A stretch of 56,403 nucleotides of DNA from Bacteroidales bacterium (GTDB lineage: Bacteria > Bacteroidota > Bacteroidia > Bacteroidales > VadinHA17), in NCBI GenBank assembly GCA_027067975.1, contig JAMOUS010000060.1:1-56403 (forward strand). The letters run 5' to 3'. The notes beneath the pieces are model-generated. The model did not search any database. It saw nothing but the letters and a program-made list of their open reading frames with translations, and was not told the origin of the DNA. A program made the translations under genes and the position numbers. Shown piece after piece: positions 1,729-43,265 of this stretch (position 1 is the stretch's first letter; every line of letters starts with the position of its first letter).

Positions 1729-1941
1729 AATGAGTATGGAGTATGGAGTATGGAGTATCGAGTATCGAGTCAGTGAGTCCCAGCTTTCGCGAGGTGAAAC
1801 CGAAGCGAAAGATGTAGGACGAACTGACCCTGACCGGAACGAAGTGGAGCGTCAGGGTTACAAGAGAGTGCCTGGAGTGCCTCGAGTATTTGGAGTACTT
1901 GGAATATTTGAAGTTGGGAGTATGGAGTTCGGAGTTCGGAG
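1729..1941 (+). repeat. Mosaic intergenic repeat, locus A (heptamer run, two hairpins, 9-mer run, heptamer run)
   Basis: 1738-1770: ATGGAGT x3 and ATCGAGT x2. 1771-1781: CAGTGAGTCCC. Hairpin CTTTCGC(1784-1790)/GCGAAAG(1805-1811). Hairpin ACCCTGAC(1827-1834)/GTCAGGGT(1851-1858). 1866-1910: five 9-mers (GAGTGCCTG, GAGTGCCTC, GAGTATTTG, GAGTACTTG, GAATATTTG). 1911-1940: heptamers. The same modules recur at 13.6-14.3, 18.25, 37.1-37.7 and 43.1 kb. Confidence 0.9.
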
Positions 1942-12682: not shown

Positions 12683-13504
12683 TCACTCCGGCACTTTCAC
12701 GGAGAAGCCGGCTTTCCGCACCGCCTCGAGGCTCATCTCCCAGCAACGGTCCTGCAACTGCTCGTCATAGCTGACGGCCGCCGAGCGGCGGCGTGCGCCG
12801 TTCTCGAAGTAGGCGCCCGAAACCCCTTCCAGCGAAGGGTCGGTCGAGACATATACGGTCATCTTCGACCCTTCGCGCACCGGCGCCCCCACAGGTCCCC
12901 ATGTCGATGTCAGTACCTTTGTGTTGATGACGCCCGGATGCAGGGCATTCACGGTGATCTTGCGCCTTCCTTCGAGGAGGCGGTGCAGCTTATAGGCAAA
13001 GAGGACATTGCAGAGTTTCGAACGGGAATAGGCGGCCACCGGGTCGAAGTAGTCCTCGTCGTTGAGCCGGTCGAGGTCGATCTCCGTGGCATGCACCATC
13101 GAAGAGACGTTGACGATACGGGCCGGCTCGTTCAGATGATCGAGGAGCAGCAGGGTGAGAAAAAAATGCCCCAGGTGGTTGACGGCCCAGGTGAGCTCGT
13201 AACCGTCCTCCGAAAGGCGATATTCATGCGCAATAATCCCTGCATTGTTGAGAAGGATGTCGAGCGGCGGACCCTCCTTCACGGTCTCTGCCATCCTTTC
13301 CACCTGTGCCAGTGAGGAAAAGTCGGCCGTAACGCCATAGACACTCCCGCCGGGGTGGAGGCGCTCCAGCTCCTTGACCGTGTCTTCCACACGCCGGGGG
13401 GAGCGGCCGTGCACCGTGATATCGTACCCCTGCCGTGCCAGCACACGCGCCGTCTCACGGCCGATGCCGTCGGTGGAACCCGTGATCAATATGTGTTTTG
13501 CCAT
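12683..13504 (-). CDS. Short-chain dehydrogenase/reductase (classical SDR, retinol-dehydrogenase-like)
   Basis: 273-aa ORF. ILITGSTDGIGRETA (TGxxxGxG) and NNAG are present, with a downstream YxxxK-type region (AYSRSKLCN). Confidence 0.9.
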   Translation of the reverse strand: MAKHILITGSTDGIGRETARVLARQGYDITVHGRSPRRVEDTVKELERLHPGGSVYGVTADFSSLAQVERMAETVKEGPPLDILLNNAGIIAHEYRLSEDGYELTWAVNHLGHFFLTLLLLDHLNEPARIVNVSSMVHATEIDLDRLNDEDYFDPVAAYSRSKLCNVLFAYKLHRLLEGRRKITVNALHPGVINTKVLTSTWGPVGAPVREGSKMTVYVSTDPSLEGVSGAYFENGARRRSAAVSYDEQLQDRCWEMSLEAVRKAGFSVKVPE

Positions 13505-13604
13505 GTCTCCCTATCCTTTGTCGTCCAAAATATAAAATTTTCTCCAATCGCGGATCTGTTTCGGGCACGGAGGAGCATTCAATGTGGAGCGGAGGGATAT
13601 TGGT

Positions 13605-14160
13605 CAAGTGTCTCGAGCACTTCGAGTGCCTAAAGTTGGAAATTACAAGTGCCTAAAGTCAGTGACACCCGGATTCTGCAAGGCGAAGCCGCAGCGGAAT
13701 CCGCTGGTGGAACTGACCCTGACCGGAGCCGTAGGCGAAGCGTCAGGGTTACAAGAAAGTGCTTGGAGTACTTAAAGTGCTTAAAATTGCAAGTTACAAG
13801 TGACTAAAGTCAATGACACCCGGCTTTCGCGAAGCTTTAGCTGTAGCGAAAGCCGATGGTGGAACTGACCCTGACCGGAGCCGTAGGCGAAGCGTCAGGG
13901 TTACAAGAAAGTGCCTGGAGTACTTAAAGTGCCTAAAATTGCAAGTTACAAGTGACTAAAGTCAATGACACCCGGCTTTCGCGAAGCTTTAGCTGTAGCG
14001 AAAGCCGATGGTGGAATTGACCCTGACCGGAACGAAGTGGAGCGTCAGGGTTACAAAAAAGTGCCTGGAGTGCCTAGAGTTGAAAGTTACAAGTGCCTAA
14101 AGTCAGTGACACCCGCCTCGTGCGAGGCGTAGAAGAAGCGGAATCTGCCGGTGGGCCTGA
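13605..14160 (+). repeat. Tandem array of a ~151-bp structured unit (about 3.7 copies), locus B1
   Basis: Unit starts (AGTG[AC]CTAAAGTCA[AG]TGACACCCG) are at 13648, 13799, 13951 and 14092, preceded by a partial tail from ~13605. Each unit has hairpin 1 (e.g. CGGCTTTCGC...GCGAAAGCCG), hairpin 2 (ACCCTGAC...GTCAGGGT) and a 9-mer tail. Copies 2 and 3 are nearly identical over their first ~70 nt. Confidence 0.95.
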
Positions 14161-14356
14161 CTCGATACTCCATACTCCATACTCCATACTTCACTTTTGC
14201 CTTTTGCCTTACCGGCAAAGTTCTGAGTTCAGAGTATCGAGTATCGAGTTGGCTTTTGACAATGCCTGAACCCTTTTATCTTTTTCCTTTTGTCTTTTGT
14301 CCTGGCGAAGGCGGATCGCTTCATCGCATTATCGCTTCATCGTGTCCGTCGCAGCC
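14161..14356. repeat. Mosaic intergenic repeat, locus B2 (inverted heptamer arms, CTTTTGCC/CTTTTGTC 8-mers, CGCTTCAT 8-mers)
   Basis: 14161-14189 is the reverse complement of the heptamer run at ~1735-1763. 14193-14220 is CACTTTTGCCTTTTGCCTTACCGGCAAAG, with palindrome TTGCC..GGCAA. 14231-14250 carries forward heptamers. 14263-14310 is TGCCTGAACCCTTTTATC...CCTTTTGTCTTTTGTCCTGGCGAAG. 14316-14342 is a CGCTTCAT-type run. 14221-14356 is collinear with 43079-43261. Confidence 0.9.
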
Positions 14357-14510
14357 TCTTCGATCAACATAGCTTTAGCGAAGTTGATTAGCGGAGGCGG
14401 ATTATCTTTTATCATGTTGAGCTTCCCTGAAGCATCACCATTTCGTTGGCTGTGCATAAAAAGATGATTTATAACCGTTATCTTTATGGATCCGGAAAGG
14501 AGGGTTTTGG

Positions 14511-15812
14511 ATGGACATCCTGGTATTCAGTGAACGGGTGACGCCGCGGTTGCGGTGGATATTGCGGGAGGTGTTGTGGCGGCGTCTTGGATTGACCCCG
14601 GTGCTGGTGGACGACCGGGAGGCATACCGTCACGGCCATGTGCCGGGGATCACCTATGCGCGGGAGCGTGTGGGGCGGCGGCACGAGCTGGTCGTCTGGC
14701 CGGCGGGGCTGCTGCAGGAAGAAGGGATCACGCCGGCACCGCCTCCGCAAGATCATTCCGGGAACGTTCCCGTGCTCTTCCCCGCGCCCCCCGGCTATGA
14801 CCTGCCCTTCGACCTCTTCTCGGCAGCGTTTCACCTGCTTTCCCGCTATGAAGAATACCTGCCCGGCGAGCGTGACCGCCTGGGGCGCTTCCCCGCCCGG
14901 GCTTCCCTGGCGTGGCAAGGCGGATGGCTCGACCGCCCCGTCGTGGACGAATGGGCGCTGTGGCTGCTCAAGCGAATGACCCAAAAGGTGGAAGGACTGC
15001 AATACCGCATGCCACCCCTGCGTTTCGTCCCTACCCTGGATGTCGACCAGGCCTTTGCCTACCGCCATAAACCGCTTTGGCGACTGATAGGGGGCGGACT
15101 CGTTCAGGGTGACCTGCGACGCCGCTGGCGGGTATGGACCGAAAAGGAAAAAGATCCCTACGACATCTTCCCCGAAATCTTCCGTCTTCATGAGCCTGTC
15201 GGGGAGATGCCGCTCCTCTTCTTCCACACGGGCCGGTGGGGCCGGTATGATAAAGGCATTTCACTGCGCCATGAGGCGATGCGCCGGGTGGTACAGTATT
15301 GTGCTTCCCGCACGCAACTGGGCATACACCCTTCGGTAAAGGCCGCCCGTGCCCCACGCCTCATCGCCAACGAGAAAGCCCTCCTGGAAGAGATATACGG
15401 CCGGCCGGTGATCTACAGTCGCATGCACTACCTCATGCTGCGCTTCCCTGAGATCCCCCGTGCCCTCTTGCAGGCGGGGATCCGGCAAGACTATTCGTTG
15501 GGCTATCCCGAAGCTCCGGGCTTCCGCGCCGGCACCTGTCATCCTTTTCAGTGGTACGACCTGGAGCGGGAGGAAGAGACCTCCCTGCTCCTTGTGCCCC
15601 TCACTGCCATGGATGGCGCGCTGCGCCACGGCATGCGCCTCTCCCCCGGACAGAGTGTGGAACGGTTGGAGCAGCTCCGCAAGACGATCGAACCTTACGG
15701 TGGCCTGCTCGTGACACTTTGGCACAACCATACGCTTGCCGGTGGTGGCGACTGGCAACCGTGGGCCGAAGCCTATTTGCATTGGATGTACGAACATTTT
15801 GCTTCTTCATGA
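14511..15812 (+). CDS. Polysaccharide deacetylase-family (carbohydrate esterase-like) protein
   Basis: 433-aa ORF. ...PTLDVDQAFAY..., ...GIHPSVKAA..., ...SRMHYLMLRFP... and ...GYPEAPGFRAGTCHPFQWYD... recall the Bacteroidota deacetylase-like family. Recognition is by motif memory only. Confidence 0.6.
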   Translation: MDILVFSERVTPRLRWILREVLWRRLGLTPVLVDDREAYRHGHVPGITYARERVGRRHELVVWPAGLLQEEGITPAPPPQDHSGNVPVLFPAPPGYDLPFDLFSAAFHLLSRYEEYLPGERDRLGRFPARASLAWQGGWLDRPVVDEWALWLLKRMTQKVEGLQYRMPPLRFVPTLDVDQAFAYRHKPLWRLIGGGLVQGDLRRRWRVWTEKEKDPYDIFPEIFRLHEPVGEMPLLFFHTGRWGRYDKGISLRHEAMRRVVQYCASRTQLGIHPSVKAARAPRLIANEKALLEEIYGRPVIYSRMHYLMLRFPEIPRALLQAGIRQDYSLGYPEAPGFRAGTCHPFQWYDLEREEETSLLLVPLTAMDGALRHGMRLSPGQSVERLEQLRKTIEPYGGLLVTLWHNHTLAGGGDWQPWAEAYLHWMYEHFASS

Positions 15813-18223: not shown

Positions 18224-18253
18224 TTTCGTTAAAATTTATTGGTTAATAATTAG

Positions 18254-18331
18254 TTCTGAGTTATCGAGTATCGAGTATTGAGTATTGAGTATTGAGTATC
18301 GAGTATTGAGTATCGAGTCAGTGAGTCCCGG
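18254..18331 (+). repeat. Heptamer microsatellite block, locus C (8 phased AT[CT]GAGT units plus CAGTGAGTCCCG junction)
   Basis: 18263-18318 reads ATCGAGT ATCGAGT ATTGAGT ATTGAGT ATTGAGT ATCGAGT ATTGAGT ATCGAGT. It is flanked by GTTCTGAGTT (5') and CAGTGAGTCCCG (3'), the same edges as at loci A and B2. Confidence 0.95.
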
Positions 18332-18341
18332 ATTTCTTTTC

Positions 18342-28509: not shown

Positions 28510-28525
28510 TCCAGATTCAGGGATA

Positions 28526-28533
28526 CAAAAGTA
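28526..28533 (-). promoter_or_regulatory. Candidate Bacteroidota -7 promoter box (TACTTTTG) for galK
   Basis: The minus strand reads TACTTTTG, an exact TAnnTTTG match, 16 nt upstream of ATG 28509. No clean -33 TTTG is present. Confidence 0.35.
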
Positions 28534-28764
28534 AAACTATTTGGAAAATAACCTCGACCGCCACGGAAAAATTGAAAAAGGTCAGGAACGGCCGGACGGA
28601 TGAGATCAGGATATCCCCCGCGGCCGTGGCAGATACGGCTGTCGGAGAGAATCAGAAGATCGTACAACCGTTCAACTTGCCAGGAGAACCTATGCCTTCC
28701 GTATTGAGCCGGAGATGCAATAACCCTTCCAGGCAAACAGGATGAGGGGAAGCGAATTCGGTAT

Positions 28765-29196
28765 TTATTTCGTGACGCTCACGGGAAATTCTATGCGTGT
28801 CTGTTCCGGATTGAGAAATTCCAGGATATAGAGGCCAGGGCGAGGGAAAATATGACGGTAAGTAACTTCCTGGGGAACCGCAAAACACAAACAGGGCTTA
28901 TCGGTGGCAACGAAGGCAAAAGCTTTTATATAGACGATGTTCCCTTGGGAGGTGGACTGGACCTTTACCACTTGTTGACAACTGTTGGAGCGGGGACAGA
29001 TGATCTTGAGGACCAGTGTATCGCCTCTTGGGGTTGTATGTGGGCCTTCGACGCGGAGGATGGGCCAGTGATGCAGTCCGTCGGGGACAGGGAGAAGAGT
29101 CTCGGGGTCTGCCGCTTTTTTACAAGATGGCAGAAGTACAAAAACGTTGAGGACCGCCCCCAAAAGGGCCAAAGATGAAAGAGGGAGCTTTGTCAT
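28765..29196 (-). CDS. Hypothetical lipoprotein
   Basis: 143-aa ORF with signal peptide and lipobox-like LLPSC. No family recognised. Confidence 0.6.
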   Translation of the reverse strand: MTKLPLSSLALLGAVLNVFVLLPSCKKAADPETLLPVPDGLHHWPILRVEGPHTTPRGDTLVLKIICPRSNSCQQVVKVQSTSQGNIVYIKAFAFVATDKPCLCFAVPQEVTYRHIFPRPGLYILEFLNPEQTRIEFPVSVTK

Positions 29197-29206
29197 GATC
29201 GGAAGG

Positions 29207-32910: not shown

Positions 32911-32942
32911 GAAGGATCCTCTATGCCCAACAGAAATACGAC

Positions 32943-33854
32943 ATGAAAAGAACAAAATGCTTTTTTATTGGGGGGATGCTCCTGACCATAAACATCTCCC
33001 TTACCGCCCAAACGGATACCCTCTTCCCTCCCTTCGATGGATATCACATCCTCCATGAATACCCTGTTTATCACGGGGAGAATCTGTGGGATTATATCGA
33101 CGGAGCGGCGGACAATTATCTTAATTACCATTTTCAGGACCTGCATGTTGCCGAGTATGCCAAGGGGAAAGACCGCATTTTTTACAAGGTGGAGATTTAC
33201 CGCCATGAGGATCCGCTGTATGCTTTCGGCATCTACAGTTCGGAACGGTCGCCGGAATACCGTTTTGTGAAGATCGGCACCCAGGGTTTCGAGGAAACGG
33301 GACAGTTGTTCTTTCTGAAGGGTTCACATTATGTAAAGGTGATGGCAGTGAACGAGAGCCGCCGGGGTGAGACGGAACTGGTGGCCCTGGCCCGGTCGGT
33401 GGCCGAACATCTGCCCGGACCGACTGCCTTCCCCTCGGAGTTGCGGCTTTTCCCCGACGAAGGCAAGGTGCCGAACTCCGAGAGGTTCATCGCCTCCGAC
33501 TTCCTAGGATATTCCTTCTTCGAAAAGGTGTTTACGGCCCTTTACCGCATAAACGGAAAGGAGTTCACTCTTTTCCTGGTATACCGGGAGGATCCCGCCA
33601 AAGTGAAAGCCCTGCTCAGTGAGCTATATCGCACTGTCGAGGGAGAAGTCCCGAAAAACCTTCCGGAAGGAGATCGCATTCTCAACGATAAATACAACGG
33701 ACGCCTTTTCATCATCTGGGAAGGAAAACTCCTCTTCGGCTTTCGCGATATCGACGACGAGGCAGTGATCCGGCCTCTCGCCGCCGCACTCCTGTTCCGA
33801 TACCGCACCGGAGAGAGAGATGATCTCTATCCGGGAACATCCCAAAGACCCTGA
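32943..33854 (+). CDS. Hypothetical secreted protein
   Basis: ORF 32817..33854; start chosen at MKRTKCFFIGGMLLTINISLTAQ (signal peptide). No family recognised with confidence. Confidence 0.6.
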   Translation: MKRTKCFFIGGMLLTINISLTAQTDTLFPPFDGYHILHEYPVYHGENLWDYIDGAADNYLNYHFQDLHVAEYAKGKDRIFYKVEIYRHEDPLYAFGIYSSERSPEYRFVKIGTQGFEETGQLFFLKGSHYVKVMAVNESRRGETELVALARSVAEHLPGPTAFPSELRLFPDEGKVPNSERFIASDFLGYSFFEKVFTALYRINGKEFTLFLVYREDPAKVKALLSELYRTVEGEVPKNLPEGDRILNDKYNGRLFIIWEGKLLFGFRDIDDEAVIRPLAAALLFRYRTGERDDLYPGTSQRP

Positions 33855-34046
33855 TTCCGAAGATCTGAAATTCTGTCGTTCCCTGACCAGAAAGAGGAGA
33901 AAGGAGACATGTCTTCATAATTACCACTTTATCAATATTTTAGAAACAACTCCTCCCGTCTTGTCCTGTTAAAAATTCTTAAACATCCCGACTTCTCCGG
34001 ATTTGGTATGCAAATTGAGAGCATTCGGTCAGAAGGAGGAAAGATC

Positions 34047-37118: not shown

Positions 37119-37680
37119 GGCGACAAGGCCAAGACAAAAGACAAAAGGATATAGATAAAAGAAGGCCCGCCTTCGTCCGGTCACCCGGACTCCGGCGGAC
37201 GAGGAAGGCAAAAGGCAACCGTTTTTAGTATCGAGTTCGGAGTATGGAGTATCGAGTATCGAGTATCGAGTTTTCGTAGTACCAGCCTATCCCACGCTCC
37301 CCTCCGCTAGTTTTCCGGCGGCATCCAAATAGGCCTGTCTACCCTTACGCCACTCATCTGGATTGCCCCAAATGTACTTTCTTACCGATTGAATATTGGA
37401 GCATTGGAATTTGTAGTTTGGAATTTATTTGGAATTTGGAATTTTCCCGAAGGGATGCCTTCGGCAGGAATTTGGAATTTTCCGAAAAGGATGCCTCCGG
37501 CAGGAATTTTCCGAAAACTCCCAACTCGATACTGGGAACTCCGAACTCGGTACTTTGCCGGTAAGGCAAAAGGGTTAAGGCAAAAGGCAAAAGTGGAGTA
37601 TCGAGTTTGGAGTATCAAGTCAATTCCACCATCGTCTTTCGCATCGCCTCCGGCTCGCGAAAGCCGGGTGTCACTGACTT
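37119..37680. repeat. Mosaic intergenic repeat, locus D (largest; modules in both orientations)
   Basis: 37121-37160: reverse CTTTTGTC/CTTTTATC module. 37167-37209: GC-rich hairpin. 37227-37271: forward heptamers. 37406-37445: GGAATTT-type run. 37436-37515: two ~37-bp repeats, the first with hairpin CCGAAGG..CCTTCGG. 37521-37551: reverse heptamers. 37552-37594: reverse CTTTTGCC module with TTGCC..GGCAA. 37595-37620: forward heptamers. 37621-37680: reverse complement of the hairpin-1 module of the 13.6-kb array. Confidence 0.9.
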
Positions 37681-37683
37681 TAT

Positions 37684-40134
37684 TCATTCCCCCATCACCA
37701 CCACGGTGACGCCGGCGCCGCCGCGGTCGACATGTTCGTCGTGGCACCGTTCCACCAGCTCATGGGCGTGCAGGAAATCACGTATGGCTTCGCGCAGGAT
37801 ACCGTTGCCCTTACCGTGGATGATACGCAGTTCTTTTTCGCCGACCATGACGGCTTCGTCGAGGAAAGCGGTGACTTCCTGCAGGGCTTCTTCGACGCGT
37901 TTTCCGCGTATGTCGATCTCGGGACGGAAATGGATGCGGCGTTGCCGCATCTCCTCTTGCCATGGCGCCGGAGAGGCGCTGCGCCGCTGCCGCCGGCGGT
38001 ACTCCTCCTCACTCACCCCTTCCAGCTTGCCGGCAGCGACGTGGGTGGTGAGGTTGCCAAACGCCACCAGGCAGGTATCCCCCTTGACCGAGATCACCTC
38101 ACCCACCGTGTCGGTCCCTTTCATCCGCACCTTGCTCCCTGCGCGGAGGGAGAGGGTCGGGGCAGAGATCTCGGGCTCATGCTTTTTGCGGTGGCGTCGC
38201 ACCTCGCGGAGGTGTTGTTCCAGGCTCTTCTCCTCGGGAGGGTTCTGCTGCAACCGTTCTTTCAGCGCCTCCAGCTCCCGGCGGGCGGTGCGGGTACGTT
38301 CCTTCTCGGCCTGGGCTTCGCGGATCTCACGGATGGTACGTTCGATCTTGCGGTTGACGTCGGAGAGGAGCCGCCCCGCCTCCTCCTGGGCCTTGTCGAG
38401 GATCTCCCGGCGGCGGCGGCGCAGCGCCTCCATCTCCTGCTCATACTCCTCCAGCAATGCCTCCAGCCTTTTCTCCGCCTGCCGGATGCGACGGCGTTTG
38501 CTCTCCCAATAGCGTTTGTCGCGGAGGATCTCTTTGAGATGTTTGTCAAAGAGGACATGCTCCTCCCCCACCTTCGAGGCCGCCTCTTGCAGCACCTCCT
38601 CCGGCAGGCCGATGCGCCGTGCCATCTCGAAGGCGAAAGAACTGCCCGGCTTCCCGATATCCAGACGGTAGAGCGGCTGCATGTTGCCATGGTCGAAGAG
38701 CATCGCACCGTTGACGATGCCCTCTTCCGAGGCGGCCAGGTGCTTGAGGTTGGTATAGTGGGTGGTCACCACGCCATAGACGCCCTTGGCGTTGAGGCGC
38801 CGCAAGACGGTCTCGGCCAGCGCCCCGCCGAGCATCGGCTCGGTGCCGGTACCCAGCTCGTCCATGAGCACCAGGGTGGCAGGACCCGCATGGCGCAAAA
38901 AGTGTTTCATCGCCAACAGGCGTGAGCTGTAGGTACTCAGGTCGTTCTCGATCGACTGTTCGTCGCCCATGTCGAGGAAGATGCGGTCGAAGATCCCGAA
39001 GCGGCTTCCCGCCGCCACCGGCACGGGCAGGCCGCACTGCAACATGTATTGCAACAGGCCCACCGTCTGCAGGCATACCGATTTTCCGCCTGCGTTGGGA
39101 CCGGAGATGACGAGGATGCGTTGGTGCCCGTTCAGCTCGATGTCGAGGGGCACCACCTGGCGGCCCTCTTTCCGGAAGTTGACCACCAGCAGCGGGTGAC
39201 GGGCCTGGTGCCAGGCGACGAGGGGTCTCTCCTCCACCGCAGGGACACTCCCCTGGAGGTCGCGGCCGAAGAGGGCCTTGGCCCGCACCAGGTCGATCTC
39301 TCCAAGCCGGGCAGCGGAAGCAAGCAGTTCAGGCACATACGGACGCACCTGGCGGGTGAGCTCCTGCAGGATCCGTTCGATCTCCCGTTCCTCGGCAAAG
39401 CCCAGGGAACGGATGTCATTGTTGATCTCAACGATCTCTGCCGGTTCGACATAGACGGTACGTCCCGTAGCCGACTCGTCGACGATGATGCCGGGAATCC
39501 GGCGTTTGTGGGTGGCAGGCAGGGGGATGACCATACGCCCCTGCCGCAAGGTGGGGGCGGCGTCGTCCTCGACCCATCCGGCCCGGCGCGCCTGTTGCAG
39601 GATCCCCTGCAGCCGGGCAGAGAGTCCCTGGCGACGGGCAGAGAGTTCGGCCCGGATCCTGCGCAGCGCGGGCGAGGCCGTATCCTTTACCGTACCCCGC
39701 GGTGTGAGCACCCGGTCAATGTGCTCCAGCAACACCGGATAATAACGCACCGCCCCCATCATCTCCCGCAAACGGGGATACCGCTCCCCATCCAGACCTT
39801 TCGCAAAGCGGGCCACCGCCCGCATGGTCTCCAGCGACCGCCGCAGGTCGTAAAGCTCCTCTATGCTCATTACCGTCCCCTCGGCGGCGATGCGTTCCAG
39901 CACCGGCGTCATGTCGATCATGCTCCCGGCAGGGAGGTCTTTCCCCTCTTCCAGCAAGCCCATGAACTCTTCCGTCACGTGCAGAACTTCCCGGATGCGG
40001 CCGGCTTCCGTCGCAAAGGAGATCTTCTCCAGCTCCCGTTCCCCCATGGGCGAAAGCAGATGACTCCCCACCAGGCGGCGGATATGCCCGAACCCCAACT
40101 TCTCCTCTATGTTGTCAGGATAGTTCCCCGTCAT
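37684..40134 (-). CDS. mutS2: Endonuclease MutS2 (MutS domain V ATPase + C-terminal Smr domain)
   Basis: 816-aa ORF. Walker A ISGPNAGGKS, DELGTGTEP, a long K/E/R coiled coil, and Smr: EIDIRGKRVEEALQEV...LRIIHGKGNGILR. Confidence 0.95.
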   Translation of the reverse strand: MTGNYPDNIEEKLGFGHIRRLVGSHLLSPMGERELEKISFATEAGRIREVLHVTEEFMGLLEEGKDLPAGSMIDMTPVLERIAAEGTVMSIEELYDLRRSLETMRAVARFAKGLDGERYPRLREMMGAVRYYPVLLEHIDRVLTPRGTVKDTASPALRRIRAELSARRQGLSARLQGILQQARRAGWVEDDAAPTLRQGRMVIPLPATHKRRIPGIIVDESATGRTVYVEPAEIVEINNDIRSLGFAEEREIERILQELTRQVRPYVPELLASAARLGEIDLVRAKALFGRDLQGSVPAVEERPLVAWHQARHPLLVVNFRKEGRQVVPLDIELNGHQRILVISGPNAGGKSVCLQTVGLLQYMLQCGLPVPVAAGSRFGIFDRIFLDMGDEQSIENDLSTYSSRLLAMKHFLRHAGPATLVLMDELGTGTEPMLGGALAETVLRRLNAKGVYGVVTTHYTNLKHLAASEEGIVNGAMLFDHGNMQPLYRLDIGKPGSSFAFEMARRIGLPEEVLQEAASKVGEEHVLFDKHLKEILRDKRYWESKRRRIRQAEKRLEALLEEYEQEMEALRRRRREILDKAQEEAGRLLSDVNRKIERTIREIREAQAEKERTRTARRELEALKERLQQNPPEEKSLEQHLREVRRHRKKHEPEISAPTLSLRAGSKVRMKGTDTVGEVISVKGDTCLVAFGNLTTHVAAGKLEGVSEEEYRRRQRRSASPAPWQEEMRQRRIHFRPEIDIRGKRVEEALQEVTAFLDEAVMVGEKELRIIHGKGNGILREAIRDFLHAHELVERCHDEHVDRGGAGVTVVVMGE

Positions 40135-40150
40135 AGAAGGCCTTGGATAT

Positions 40151-40195
40151 ACCTATTTAAATATCTATTTAAACACCTATTTAAATACCTATTTT
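40151..40195. repeat. AT-rich 12-nt direct repeat x3.75 immediately upstream of mutS2
   Basis: ACCTATTTAAAT (40151-40162), ATCTATTTAAAC (40163-40174), ACCTATTTAAAT (40175-40186), ACCTATTTT (40187-40195). The block ends 16 nt from the mutS2 start codon (40134) and sits in otherwise GC-rich DNA. Confidence 0.9.
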
Positions 40196-40221: not shown

Positions 40222-40893
40222 TCAGAAGTTCAGTTCGATGGTGAGCAGGCTCACGGGGTTCCACCGGATGAAGAAAAGGTCGTTGCGAACCTTTTCTTCG
40301 CGGGGCACCCCTTCCTGGTCCCAGGTAAAGTCGGTGCCTTTTTCGTGGTTATAGCCCATTTCGGCATTGGTTTCGATCGAGAAGGAGAGTACGTCCGTCG
40401 CATGGAGGGTGATGCCGGCGATGGGCATGAGCACCCCGCCCAGGCGCCGTGTTTGCAATTTACGGTAATCTCCCGCAATCACGCCACCGTTCTCGGTGTA
40501 CTTTACCGCACTCATCATCATCAGGTCGACTGCCAGGTAAGGTTCCAGAACTTTTCCCGCAAAACGGTATCCCCAGCCACCGCCCATCTGCACGTCGGAA
40601 TAGAGGTTGACTTTCATGTTGTCGGTGACCGATTCGTCACGGTTGCGCTGGAAATAATCGAAACGTGCCCGGACAAAATACCCGCTTCCGATATCACGGC
40701 GGTAGACGAGGCCGTGGAAGATCACCGGCCAGAACTCCTCCTGGTCGTCGATGACGGGCCGGGAGATATAGCTAAAGAAGTTGATCCCGATCATGTTCCG
40801 TGACAACTCCAGGTCGGAGAGCTGGGCTTTCACGGCAGGGAATGTCGTCAGGAGCAGCAATATAATGACGGCACGCAGGAAGATATCTCTCAT
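40222..40893 (-). CDS. Hypothetical outer-membrane beta-barrel protein
   Basis: 223-aa ORF with signal peptide MRDIFLRAVIILLLLTTFPAVKAQ. It has an alternating beta-strand pattern and a C-terminal ...LLTIELNF, the terminal Phe typical of outer-membrane proteins. Confidence 0.65.
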   Translation of the reverse strand: MRDIFLRAVIILLLLTTFPAVKAQLSDLELSRNMIGINFFSYISRPVIDDQEEFWPVIFHGLVYRRDIGSGYFVRARFDYFQRNRDESVTDNMKVNLYSDVQMGGGWGYRFAGKVLEPYLAVDLMMMSAVKYTENGGVIAGDYRKLQTRRLGGVLMPIAGITLHATDVLSFSIETNAEMGYNHEKGTDFTWDQEGVPREEKVRNDLFFIRWNPVSLLTIELNF

Positions 40894-43078: not shown

Positions 43079-43261
43079 AGTTCGGAGTTCGGAGTTCCGA
43101 GTTTGGAGTCCCGAGTATCGAGTTGGGAATTGAAAAAATTGCCTGAACCCTTTTATCTTTTGCCTTTTGTCTTTTGTCTTGGCGAAGCCTCATCGCTTCA
43201 TCACATTATCGCTTTATCGCTTCATCGCTTCATCGTGTCCACCGTAGCCGCAGGCGGAGCG
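43079..43261 (+). repeat. Mosaic intergenic repeat, locus E (heptamers, CTTTTGYC 8-mers, CGCTTCAT 8-mers)
   Basis: 43079-43127: AGTTCGG AGTTCGG AGTTCCG AGTTTGG AGTCCCG AGTATCG AGTTGGG. 43139-43184: TGCCTGAACCCTTTTATCTTTTGCCTTTTGTCTTTTGTCTTGGCGAAG, about 50 of 52 identical to 14263-14310. 43186-43233: CGCTTCAT-type run. It fills the whole gap between the convergent stops of yaaA and rnfA. Confidence 0.9.
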
Positions 43262-43265
43262 TGCT

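Follow-up and report, generated by a model that had tools for sequence, protein, structure and literature searches.

A tandem array of two-hairpin units as one locus of a modular intergenic repeat family in a Bacteroidales genome

What is the tandem array of hairpin-forming units that occupies positions 13605–14161 of contig JAMOUS010000060.1 from a Bacteroidales bacterium (assembly GCA_027067975.1), and does it stand alone? A first-pass annotation of this stretch of DNA, which is 56,403 nucleotides long and is called the window throughout, took it for a local array and missed the genome-wide modular system to which it belongs. Here, we show that it is one of the loci of a modular repeat family that is non-coding, present in high copy, and confined to intergenic DNA in the genome of an uncultured member of the Bacteroidota. 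Two hairpins, one long and irregular (H1) and a second one (H2), are found in each unit along with a linker made of 9-mers, and the two hairpins together make up a 93-nt module, the core brick of the family. Loci used for comparison are cited by number (L001, L003, and so on).

The array and the fold of its units

The tandem array of ~151-bp units announced by the first-pass annotation exists: Tandem Repeats Finder (TRF) reports a 152-nt period at 13606–14125 (3.1–3.4 copies, 86–88% matches, scores 701/565), and ungapped repeat finding places the units 151, 152, and 141 nt apart. A pattern describing H1 (AGTCARTGA-NN-CC...GG-NN-G..YTGAC) matches the window six times (1768+, 13657+, 13808+, 13960+, 14101+, and 37619−) and 100 shuffled sequences not once, and a pattern describing H2 (ACCCTGAC..GTCAGGGT) matches four times, with none expected. 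The units were also correctly predicted to fold, being individually more stable than their shuffles (z = −4.7 to −5.7). No open reading frame is conserved in frame across the units, and the 1-, 2-, and 10-nt indels that separate the subtypes break the frame; these indels, together with periods that are not multiples of three, identify the array as non-coding.

Of the four units said to begin at 13648, 13799, 13951, and 14092, the first three are intact, scoring 98–109 bits with the covariance model described below, whereas the fourth, at 23.9 bits, is a degenerate terminal brick (14092–14161) whose 5′ arm derives from one H1 subtype and whose 3′ arm derives from another, without any H2. Its 5′ arm, CGCCTCGTGC, is the one that has GCAGGAGGCG as its partner in intact copies, and the tip reads GGC-GTA-GCC, so that the CGCCTC/GAGGCG "stem" previously drawn for this copy is in fact an arm joined to a tip. 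The same brick recurs at L003:9479 and L016:2876, and at three loci it is the last unit ahead of reverse 7-mers. The "partial unit" thought to precede the array (13605–13647) is made of linker 9-mers of the AAGTGCCTN type but contains no hairpin.

The anatomy of the module, described throughout on the unit strand, is richer than the short stem-loops first recognized. H1 is longer than the hairpin 1 drawn at first. Its outermost helix, P1 (6 bp, GTCART/AYTGAC), is followed inwards by a 2 × 2 tandem G.A internal loop (TGA/GAA), the GA/GA of which is invariant between P1 and P2 in 50 of 53 copies, then by the 4-bp helix P2 (CACC/GGTG, GTCC/GGAC, or GACC/GGTC), a 3′-side bulge of constant length (2 nt) and free sequence, and the helix P3 (7–10 bp, at least five sequence subtypes). 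Above P3 come a GA/GAA loop and then a tip helix of 3 bp, whose cap is GAA, GGA, GTA, AAA, or a loop of 4 nt. The H1 foot reads AGTCARTGA or TATTAATGA, the 4 nt ahead of P2 being GTGA or ATGA. H2 abuts P1 without a linker; its stem measures 8 bp, its internal loop is rich in purines, and its tip has the form C-GNA-G, with all four bases observed at N. Across copies, tips mostly carry 3-nt loops (GAA, GGA, GTA, GCA, or AAA), with the C-GNA-G triloop as the usual form; the hairpin-1 loops regarded earlier as free and variable are each a covarying 3-bp mini-helix, mostly capped by a GNA triloop. From H2 to the next H1 runs T[GT][AC]AAGTTACAAGTG[AC]CTAA, optionally lengthened by the AAGTGCCTN-type 9-mers. 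The unit strand holds 46 G.T cells versus 28 A.C cells and is 1.5–3 kcal/mol more stable than the opposite strand. In a comparison of DNA and RNA folding, both strands take the same architecture, with the unit strand only slightly more stable, a result that does not discriminate between the two.

To what extent the fold itself is maintained can be read from its covariation. The covariance model (R1) was built from a MAFFT alignment, which is blind to structure, of 29 distinct full units. In this alignment, 96.2% of cells fall in standard pairs versus 24–41% when the 3′ partners are slid by 1–3 columns; 13 of 33 pairs change on both sides; and the covariation score of 0.215, versus 0.097 in shuffles, is matched by none of 500 shuffles. 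RNAalifold independently recovers the identical structure. Among 55 distinct copies, both-side changes reach 30 of 33 pairs in an alignment that was made with the model and hence leans towards it. The copies are paralogues falling into a handful of subtypes, so the independent events are fewer than the cell counts suggest. Nonetheless, every helix displays several distinct compensated states: P1 changes from GTCAGT/ACTGAC to ATTAAT/ATTAAT at L025:121 and L015:932, and the H2 stem from ACCCTGAC/GTCAGGGT to ATCCCGAC/GTCGGGAT at L010:6044 or to ATCCCGG/CCGGGAT at L025:121. The H2 stem, described as invariant, is therefore so within the window and changes with compensation elsewhere. The two compensatory differences reported between copy 1 and copies 2 and 3 are found again as A:T to C:G at columns 17–46 and C:G to T:A at columns 20–43. 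Thus, the fold has been maintained while its sequence changed, and selection on it is strongly supported, with covariation far above both controls, as had been proposed for a folded single strand of either RNA or DNA.

A genome-wide family of intergenic bricks

To place the array in its genome, we scanned Joint Genome Institute (JGI) metagenomes with the exact H1 pattern, which returned 29 loci, 23 of them from the single sample Ga0256835. A contig of this sample shares 99.97% identity over 3.1 kb with the contig of ERZ27262658 that carries the window's SDR gene, and the sample therefore holds the same organism as the window. Searching 302 kb with the covariance model (cmsearch) gave 59 hits, reduced to 51 non-redundant copies in ~31 clusters within ~245 kb of one organism; the further copies and the covariation beyond chance that the first-pass annotation anticipated were thus both found. 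All 51 copies are intergenic and none lies within a gene, the genes having been called with a codon-usage caller that matches the database gene calls for L003.

The family is modular at every level. Head-to-tail arrays of 2–5 units occur at nine other loci, and across loci the units are spaced 110 to 326 nt apart, following the number of 7- and 9-mers. Near-identical subtypes are present at seven loci or more, H1 and H2 subtypes are found in nearly all combinations, and H1-only, truncated, and hybrid copies exist. Where H1 lacks H2, reverse-complement 7-mers follow directly and prolong P1 into a long palindrome. In the window, 12-mers that recur at no fewer than four loci account for 1509 of the 7383 nucleotides of intergenic DNA (~20%), distributed over 5–6 of its 25 intergenic regions and practically never in genes. 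Besides H1 and H2, the recurrent bricks include the short tandem arrays (GAGTATC/GAGTTCG)n, (CTTTTGY)n, and (ATCGCTTC)n, together with a GGCGGA hairpin, a palindrome built of inverted 7-mers, and a brick that joins a hairpin to T-rich sequence. Two proteins neighbouring family copies carry a type IX secretion system (T9SS) sorting domain (PF18962), the only feature from which the analysis derived the phylum.

Three further observations concern individual bricks. The 232-nt gap between the co-directional genes at 1713–1944 consists almost wholly of bricks, from ~20 nt past the stop to the next start; the gap leaves no room for an ordinary promoter, so that the element there is probably co-transcribed. 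At 37404–37509, 2.2 copies of a 36-nt tandem repeat (GGAATTTGGAATTTTCCCGAAGGGATGCCTTCGGCA), which has a small hairpin of its own, come after a (TTGGAAT)n array, and a relative adjoins an H1–H2 unit at L027:7004–7090. Another recurrent brick combines a GC hairpin (GTCCCTCCGGGAC or GCCCCTCCGGGGC), GTACGTTTTGTTTATTGTTCC, and a second hairpin (CAGCCACTGAAGTGGCTG); it is found at L015:860–930, L015:9815–9890, L025 (minus strand, ~200–270), and L028:10350–10400, accompanies H1 variants with the ATTAAT form of P1, and resembles a terminator, but its T run begins 5 nt past the stem.

Beyond this organism, scanning 185,579 GTDB species representatives (596 Gb) with the exact H1 pattern revealed one real relative, in Croceitalea sp. 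MTPC5, and one chance match in coding sequence, the organism of the window not being among the representatives that carry the pattern; the scan demanded an exact P1 and hence does not fix the true taxonomic spread. In Croceitalea (NZ_BTGQ01000004.1), a flavobacterium with a GC content of 42% versus 57% in the organism of the window, two tandem units lie on the minus strand between the asnB terminator and gyrB (L001:1760–1930; 43.7 bits), one complete and the other without the 5′ strand of P1. The copy keeps P1, the GA loop, P2 (as GACC/GGTC), and the 2-nt bulge; its P3 is a different 8-bp helix capped by GAA, and its H2 has a different stem with the tip AAC-GNA-GTG retained. Plasmids and phages gave no match (blastn, distant mode), and a looser pattern drew 47 loci from IMG/VR, none of which scored with the covariance model, a result that also serves as the negative control of the model. 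Rfam 15 has no match at gathering thresholds anywhere in the window and only chance-level matches at E ≤ 10 in 13450–14550. The family GA-cis (RF02987) shares two hairpins, GA/GA internal loops, and GAA-type loops with the module, and aligns weakly with the Croceitalea copy; we rejected it, since that alignment reaches 16.1 bits versus a gathering threshold of 34.7, the helix arrangement is unlike, and the units of the window do not match it at E ≤ 10.

What kind of element the module may be

The repeat family matches no described one, as the first-pass annotation had suspected; its nearest kinds are the repetitive extragenic palindromic (REP) sequences with their clusters, the bacterial interspersed mosaic elements (BIMEs), the pneumococcal BOX elements, and BrickBuilt. 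By analogy with REP/BIME or BOX, we regard it as somewhat probable that the module acts as a folded single strand at the level of DNA. Four features favour DNA over mRNA, namely the lack of an orientation preference, the lack of transcription signals, the C-GNA-G triloops, and the precedent of one subclass of REP-associated tyrosine transposases (RAYTs). The units lie in 8 convergent, 9 tandem, and 3–4 divergent contexts, and in co-directional contexts they are sense in 3 cases, antisense in 5, and mixed in 1. A scan for promoters and terminators around the units found nothing exceeding shuffles, and terminator-like sites (a GC-rich hairpin followed by a T run) number 0 in 13300–14700 versus a shuffle mean of 1.6, which also excludes an intrinsic terminator as the identity of the element. 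GC skew, compared with unit orientation as a proxy for replication direction, was too noisy on loci of 3–14 kb. DNA mini-hairpins with a d(GNA) triloop and a closing C-G pair are of exceptional stability (PMC3201870, PMC13037366). RAYT subclass 2.6, which is mostly from Bacteroidetes, is reported to have genes flanked by atypical structured repeats that lack GTAG, reach lengths of 122 nt, and are scattered over the genome (PMC6006769).

If the module does act as DNA, its copies would be spread and homogenized among loci through recombination or gene conversion between bricks, possibly with the help of a trans-acting enzyme that recognizes hairpins, for example a HUH Y1 transposase of the RAYT type. 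Head-to-tail arrays like that at 13648–14161 would grow and shrink as the 9-mer linkers undergo unequal crossing-over or slip during replication, and any effect on adjacent genes, be it on mRNA stability or on promoter spacing, would come second.

The loose likeness to REP/BIME clusters or to minisatellite-bearing MITEs (miniature transposable elements with inverted repeats) that was noted initially has withstood these comparisons. With REP/BIME, the family shares imperfect palindromes that contain a bulge, are present in high copy, and stand strictly outside genes; in both, a genome holds several subtypes, clusters include linker motifs, the fold is conserved while its sequence covaries, and positions downstream of genes are frequent. 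With the repeats of RAYT subclass 2.6, it shares the absence of GTAG, the possibility of great length (122 nt in Belliella), and frequent 3-nt loops (PMC6006769). The family also has much in common with repeats that are built from bricks. The BOX element of Streptococcus pneumoniae, boxA-boxB(n)-boxC, likewise consists of short modular bricks, the internal one in variable tandem number, with a predicted stable fold and a dispersed, intergenic, non-coding distribution; it differs in phylum and sequence, and the present family has many more brick types, including 7-, 8-, and 9-mer microsatellites, and extensive compensatory variation in its structural core. BrickBuilt, a minisatellite-MITE of Porphyromonas gingivalis with ~19 copies per genome, is another always intergenic Bacteroidota element with a spacer-free tandem internal repeat, leader and tail subunits, and attendant assembly problems; it has a 23-nt repeat unit and small inverted-repeat ends, whereas the family described here has a ~150-nt unit, two long covarying hairpins, no inverted-repeat ends, and no sequence similarity to it (PMC4596501). 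TAACTGA heptamer repeats of Beggiatoaceae, Cyanobacteria, and some Bacteroidetes (PMC4679880) are abundant, intergenic, and phylogenetically sporadic, and can be compared with (GAGTATC)n and (CTTTTGY)n of the present family; they have other sequences and are not described as fused to a conserved structured module. The same likeness and difference apply to the heptamer tandem repeats of cyanobacteria known as short tandemly repeated repetitive (STRR) sequences.

Several observations weigh against a REP-like reading at the DNA level. The GT[AG]G tetranucleotide that REPs carry 0–2 nt 5′ of the hairpin foot is absent from the family, and the module, a 93-nt hairpin pair, far exceeds the 20–40-nt hairpin of a classical REP. 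The arrays run head-to-tail (++, +++, ----) rather than alternating as in BIMEs, with one inverted pair only (L015:932/1063). A six-frame scan for the RAYT/HUH motif ([ND]H[LIVFY]H ... Y[IVL]xx[NE][PQ]) found no match in any frame of ~300 kb, a small part of the genome, and all-against-all blastn of ~245 kb, again a small sample, found no multi-copy coding sequence or insertion sequence (IS) of 500 nt or more. None of the subclass 2.6 motifs in Table S1 of PMC6006769 resembles H1 or H2. No insertion or empty-site polymorphism was observed, and the strand-specific features (purine-rich loops, G.T in excess of A.C, a more stable unit strand) are equally compatible with RNA. Finally, the relative in the distant genus Croceitalea comprises only two units at a single locus within the 8-kb stretch examined, and on that account resembles a conserved functional element more than a selfish repeat.

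In a different proposal, H1–H2 is a functional structured RNA, transcribed alone or within untranslated or intercistronic regions and secondarily amplified in this genome; its role at the RNA level could be, for instance, that of a scaffold or sponge for proteins, a block to 3′-exonucleases, or a processing signal. We consider this possible, if rather unlikely. The very strong covariation in every helix fits such an RNA, as do the invariant UGA/GAA tandem G.A loop and the conserved second GA/GAA loop, which are typical RNA tertiary or protein-binding motifs, and the 46 G.U-type cells against 28 of A.C on the unit strand. So do the architecture and AAC-GNA-GTG tip kept in Croceitalea, in two units after the asnB terminator and upstream of gyrB, and the probable transcription of the element filling the co-directional gap at 1713–1944. 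Nevertheless, the units occur in both orientations relative to flanking genes, so that many would be antisense in read-through transcripts, and they lack flanking promoters and terminators. Truncated, hybrid, and H1-only copies are common, GNA triloops are more typical of DNA mini-hairpins than of RNA, and no Rfam family accommodates the module, the best being GA-cis, at 16 bits in the Croceitalea copy only. If it were an RNA, the module would define a new class of non-coding RNA.

A broader and still more doubtful proposal is that H1–H2 represents a functional fold of nucleic acid not described before, be it a structured RNA or a single-stranded DNA ligand of a dedicated protein, that has been conserved across distant Bacteroidota and, in one lineage, co-opted or amplified into a system of bricks that builds a fifth of the intergenic DNA. 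If so, it would be a new class of element, beyond a new REP-like family.

Classical transposition offers another explanation, in which the composites are MITEs or palindrome-associated transposable elements (PATEs), that is, internally deleted ISs moved by a cognate transposase (DDE or IS200/IS605 TnpA), with H1 and H2 as the left- and right-end hairpins. The high copy number, small size, and intergenic location are in keeping with this, and many units carry GTTACAAG both ~19 nt 5′ of the foot of P2 in H1 and directly 3′ of H2, a flank that can be likened to the TTAC cleavage and target site of IS608; an element regenerating its own target would insert beside itself, so that tandem insertion would be expected. 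We nevertheless judge this improbable, given that the composites end in direct microsatellites (7-mers, as at 1732–1937) with neither terminal inverted repeats nor target-site duplications, that the occurrence of H1 is independent of that of H2, with subtypes combined in nearly every way, that no transposase gene or other multi-copy coding sequence was found in ~245 kb, and that GTTACAAG is just one among several alternative flanks.

Other known systems were rejected on structural grounds, in two cases as the first-pass annotation had already done. The array is not a CRISPR array, since the whole 152-nt unit is repeated and the linkers are 9-mer repeats common to several loci, with no unique spacers. 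Integron attC sites have the cores R″ and R′ (RYYYAAC and GTTRRRY), which are absent on either strand of H1, and the units of 141–152 nt contain no conserved open reading frame and form no cassettes. The hammerhead ribozyme has a CUGANGA core, a GAA, and an NUH cleavage site arranged around three helices; H1 has only the UGA...GAA tandem-GA part, preceded by UCA[AG] instead of CUGA, its P1 continues as a plain helix, and Rfam reports no match.

Whichever of these readings applies, the family provides a working covariance model for a large structured repeat family recognized by no library, in a phylum where such elements have barely been described, and it explains much otherwise unannotated intergenic DNA of this genome. 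With compensatory variation along its full length, a tandem-GA loop that does not vary, and triloops of the C-GNA-G form, the module is a clean candidate substrate for a hairpin-recognizing protein, for example one of the poorly understood RAYT subclass 2.6 of Bacteroidetes. The family could also serve strain typing, in the manner of REP and BOX polymerase chain reaction (REP-PCR and BOX-PCR).

The array locus in other assemblies

The possibility that the array is an assembly artefact, in which dispersed repeats were collapsed, expanded, or misjoined, gains some credence from the comparison of assemblies. On the SDR side, contig k141_383628 of ERZ27262658 equals the window up to ~14162 except for one missing 152-nt unit, units 2 and 3 being merged there (three units, not four), and past the shared sequence it continues through paralogous bricks and a terminator to citrate synthase rather than to the DUF7033 gene. 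On the other side, contig k141_687212 equals the window from ~14094 and carries 55 nt of different, unrelated sequence to the left of the terminal brick; all five mismatches between the window and this DUF7033 contig (L005) fall at 14077–14093, where the window follows the SDR contig. A three-way alignment locates the switch between contigs within a 70-nt identical brick (window 14094–14162, L003:9479–9556, L005:89–155), and Logan contigs end at 13668 and resume at 14306. Still, the array beside the SDR gene (units 1–3 and the terminal brick) is reproduced in the k = 141 contig, with one unit fewer than in the window; arrays of 2–5 units stand at the nine other loci; and the family is found in four data sets. 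An artefactual origin of the array as a whole is thus very improbable; its existence is firm, and the doubt is confined to the right-hand junction and the copy number. The check on assembly that the first-pass annotation called for accordingly has a divided outcome, the family being present in several independent assemblies and this junction and copy number being reproduced in no other.

The number of intact units in the array is two or three, and the adjacency of SDR and DUF7033 in the window is either a chimeric join inside the 70-nt repeat or a real recombinant; the join at 14094–14162 is probably chimeric in one of the assemblies. The gene order of the window across 14.1 kb is therefore not to be trusted. 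The "divergent promoter region" between the SDR gene and a deacetylase-like gene, in which the array was initially placed, probably results from this join, and the neighbouring 433-aa protein matches DUF7033 only in Pfam, with no match to a deacetylase. More generally, contigs break or switch within bricks, so that in metagenome-assembled genomes the bricks are a tangible source of contig breaks and probably also of chimeric joins. The bricks of the window are listed in Table 1.

Table 1. Coordinates of the array, its hairpins, and other bricks in the window
Feature	Position	Strand	Description
Leading linker	13605–13647	+	AAGTGCCTN-type 9-mers up to GTTACA; no hairpin; inside TRF array 13606–14071
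Unit 1	13648–13798	+	109.3 bits (covariance model); fold −61.7 kcal/mol, z = −4.66
Unit 1 H1	13657–13717	+	Subtype CGGATTCTGC/GCGGAATCCG; tip GGC-GAA-GCC
Unit 1 H2	13716–13749	+	Tip GCC-GTA-GGC; 9-mer linker follows at 13750–13798
Unit 2	13799–13950	+	106.4 bits (covariance model); fold z = −5.65; ends in 9-mer linker
Unit 2 H1	13808–13869	+	Subtype CGGCTTTCGC/GCGAAAGCCG; tip AGC-TTTA-GCT
Unit 2 H2	13868–13901	+	
Unit 3	13951–14091	+	98.4 bits (covariance model); shorter linker
Unit 3 H1	13960–14021	+	Unit 2 subtype, but P1 A:T in place of A.C
Unit 3 H2	14020–14051	+	Tip AC-GAA-GT
Terminal degenerate H1-only brick ("copy 4")	14092–14161	+	H1 match from 14101; 23.9 bits
Palindromic brick	14160–14250	.	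(ACTCCAT)n, CACTTTTGCCTTTTGCCTTACCGGCAAAG, (GAGTTCN/GAGTATC)n: inverted 7-mer arrays around CTTTTGCC core; TRF rows at 14160, 14194, 14232; also in L028, L015, L033, L029, L025
Brick	14263–14360	+	TGCCTGAACCCTTTTATC, (CTTTTGY)n, GGCGAAGGCGGA hairpin, (ATCGCTTC)n 8-mers; paralogue at 43140–43219, 91% identical
Single-unit composite	1732–1937	+	(GAGTATG/C)n, H1 (1768–1828; P2 GTCC/GGAC, tip GGT-GAA-ACC), H2 (1827–1858), then 9-mers and 7-mers; 98.8 bits
(GAGTATY)n array into truncated H1 5′ end	18251–18336	+	H1 5′ end AGTCAGTGAGTCCCGGATTTC at 18316; remainder of hairpin missing
Composite locus	37193–37682	−	H1-only copy (minus strand, 37619–37679, tip GCC-GGA-GGC), reverse 7-mers, CTTTTGCC brick, 36-nt tandem repeat; 58.7 bits
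Brick-only locus without H1 or H2	43079–43262	+	(GAGTTCG)n, TGCCTGAACCC, (CTTTTGY)n, (ATCGCTTC)n

Two other observations were made in the window. The stretches 32911–34007 (1097 nt) and 28510–29206 (697 nt) have neither a codon-usage gene call nor repeat bricks. A 12-mer tandem repeat (ATACCTATTTAA, 3.8 copies, 40149–40194), unrelated to the hairpin module, occupies the 87-nt gap between two minus-strand genes (the 3′ end of 37684–40134 and the 5′ end of 40222–40893); a further intergenic region of this organism holds an almost identical array (L011:3204–3262), and these repeats may be a regulator-binding array.

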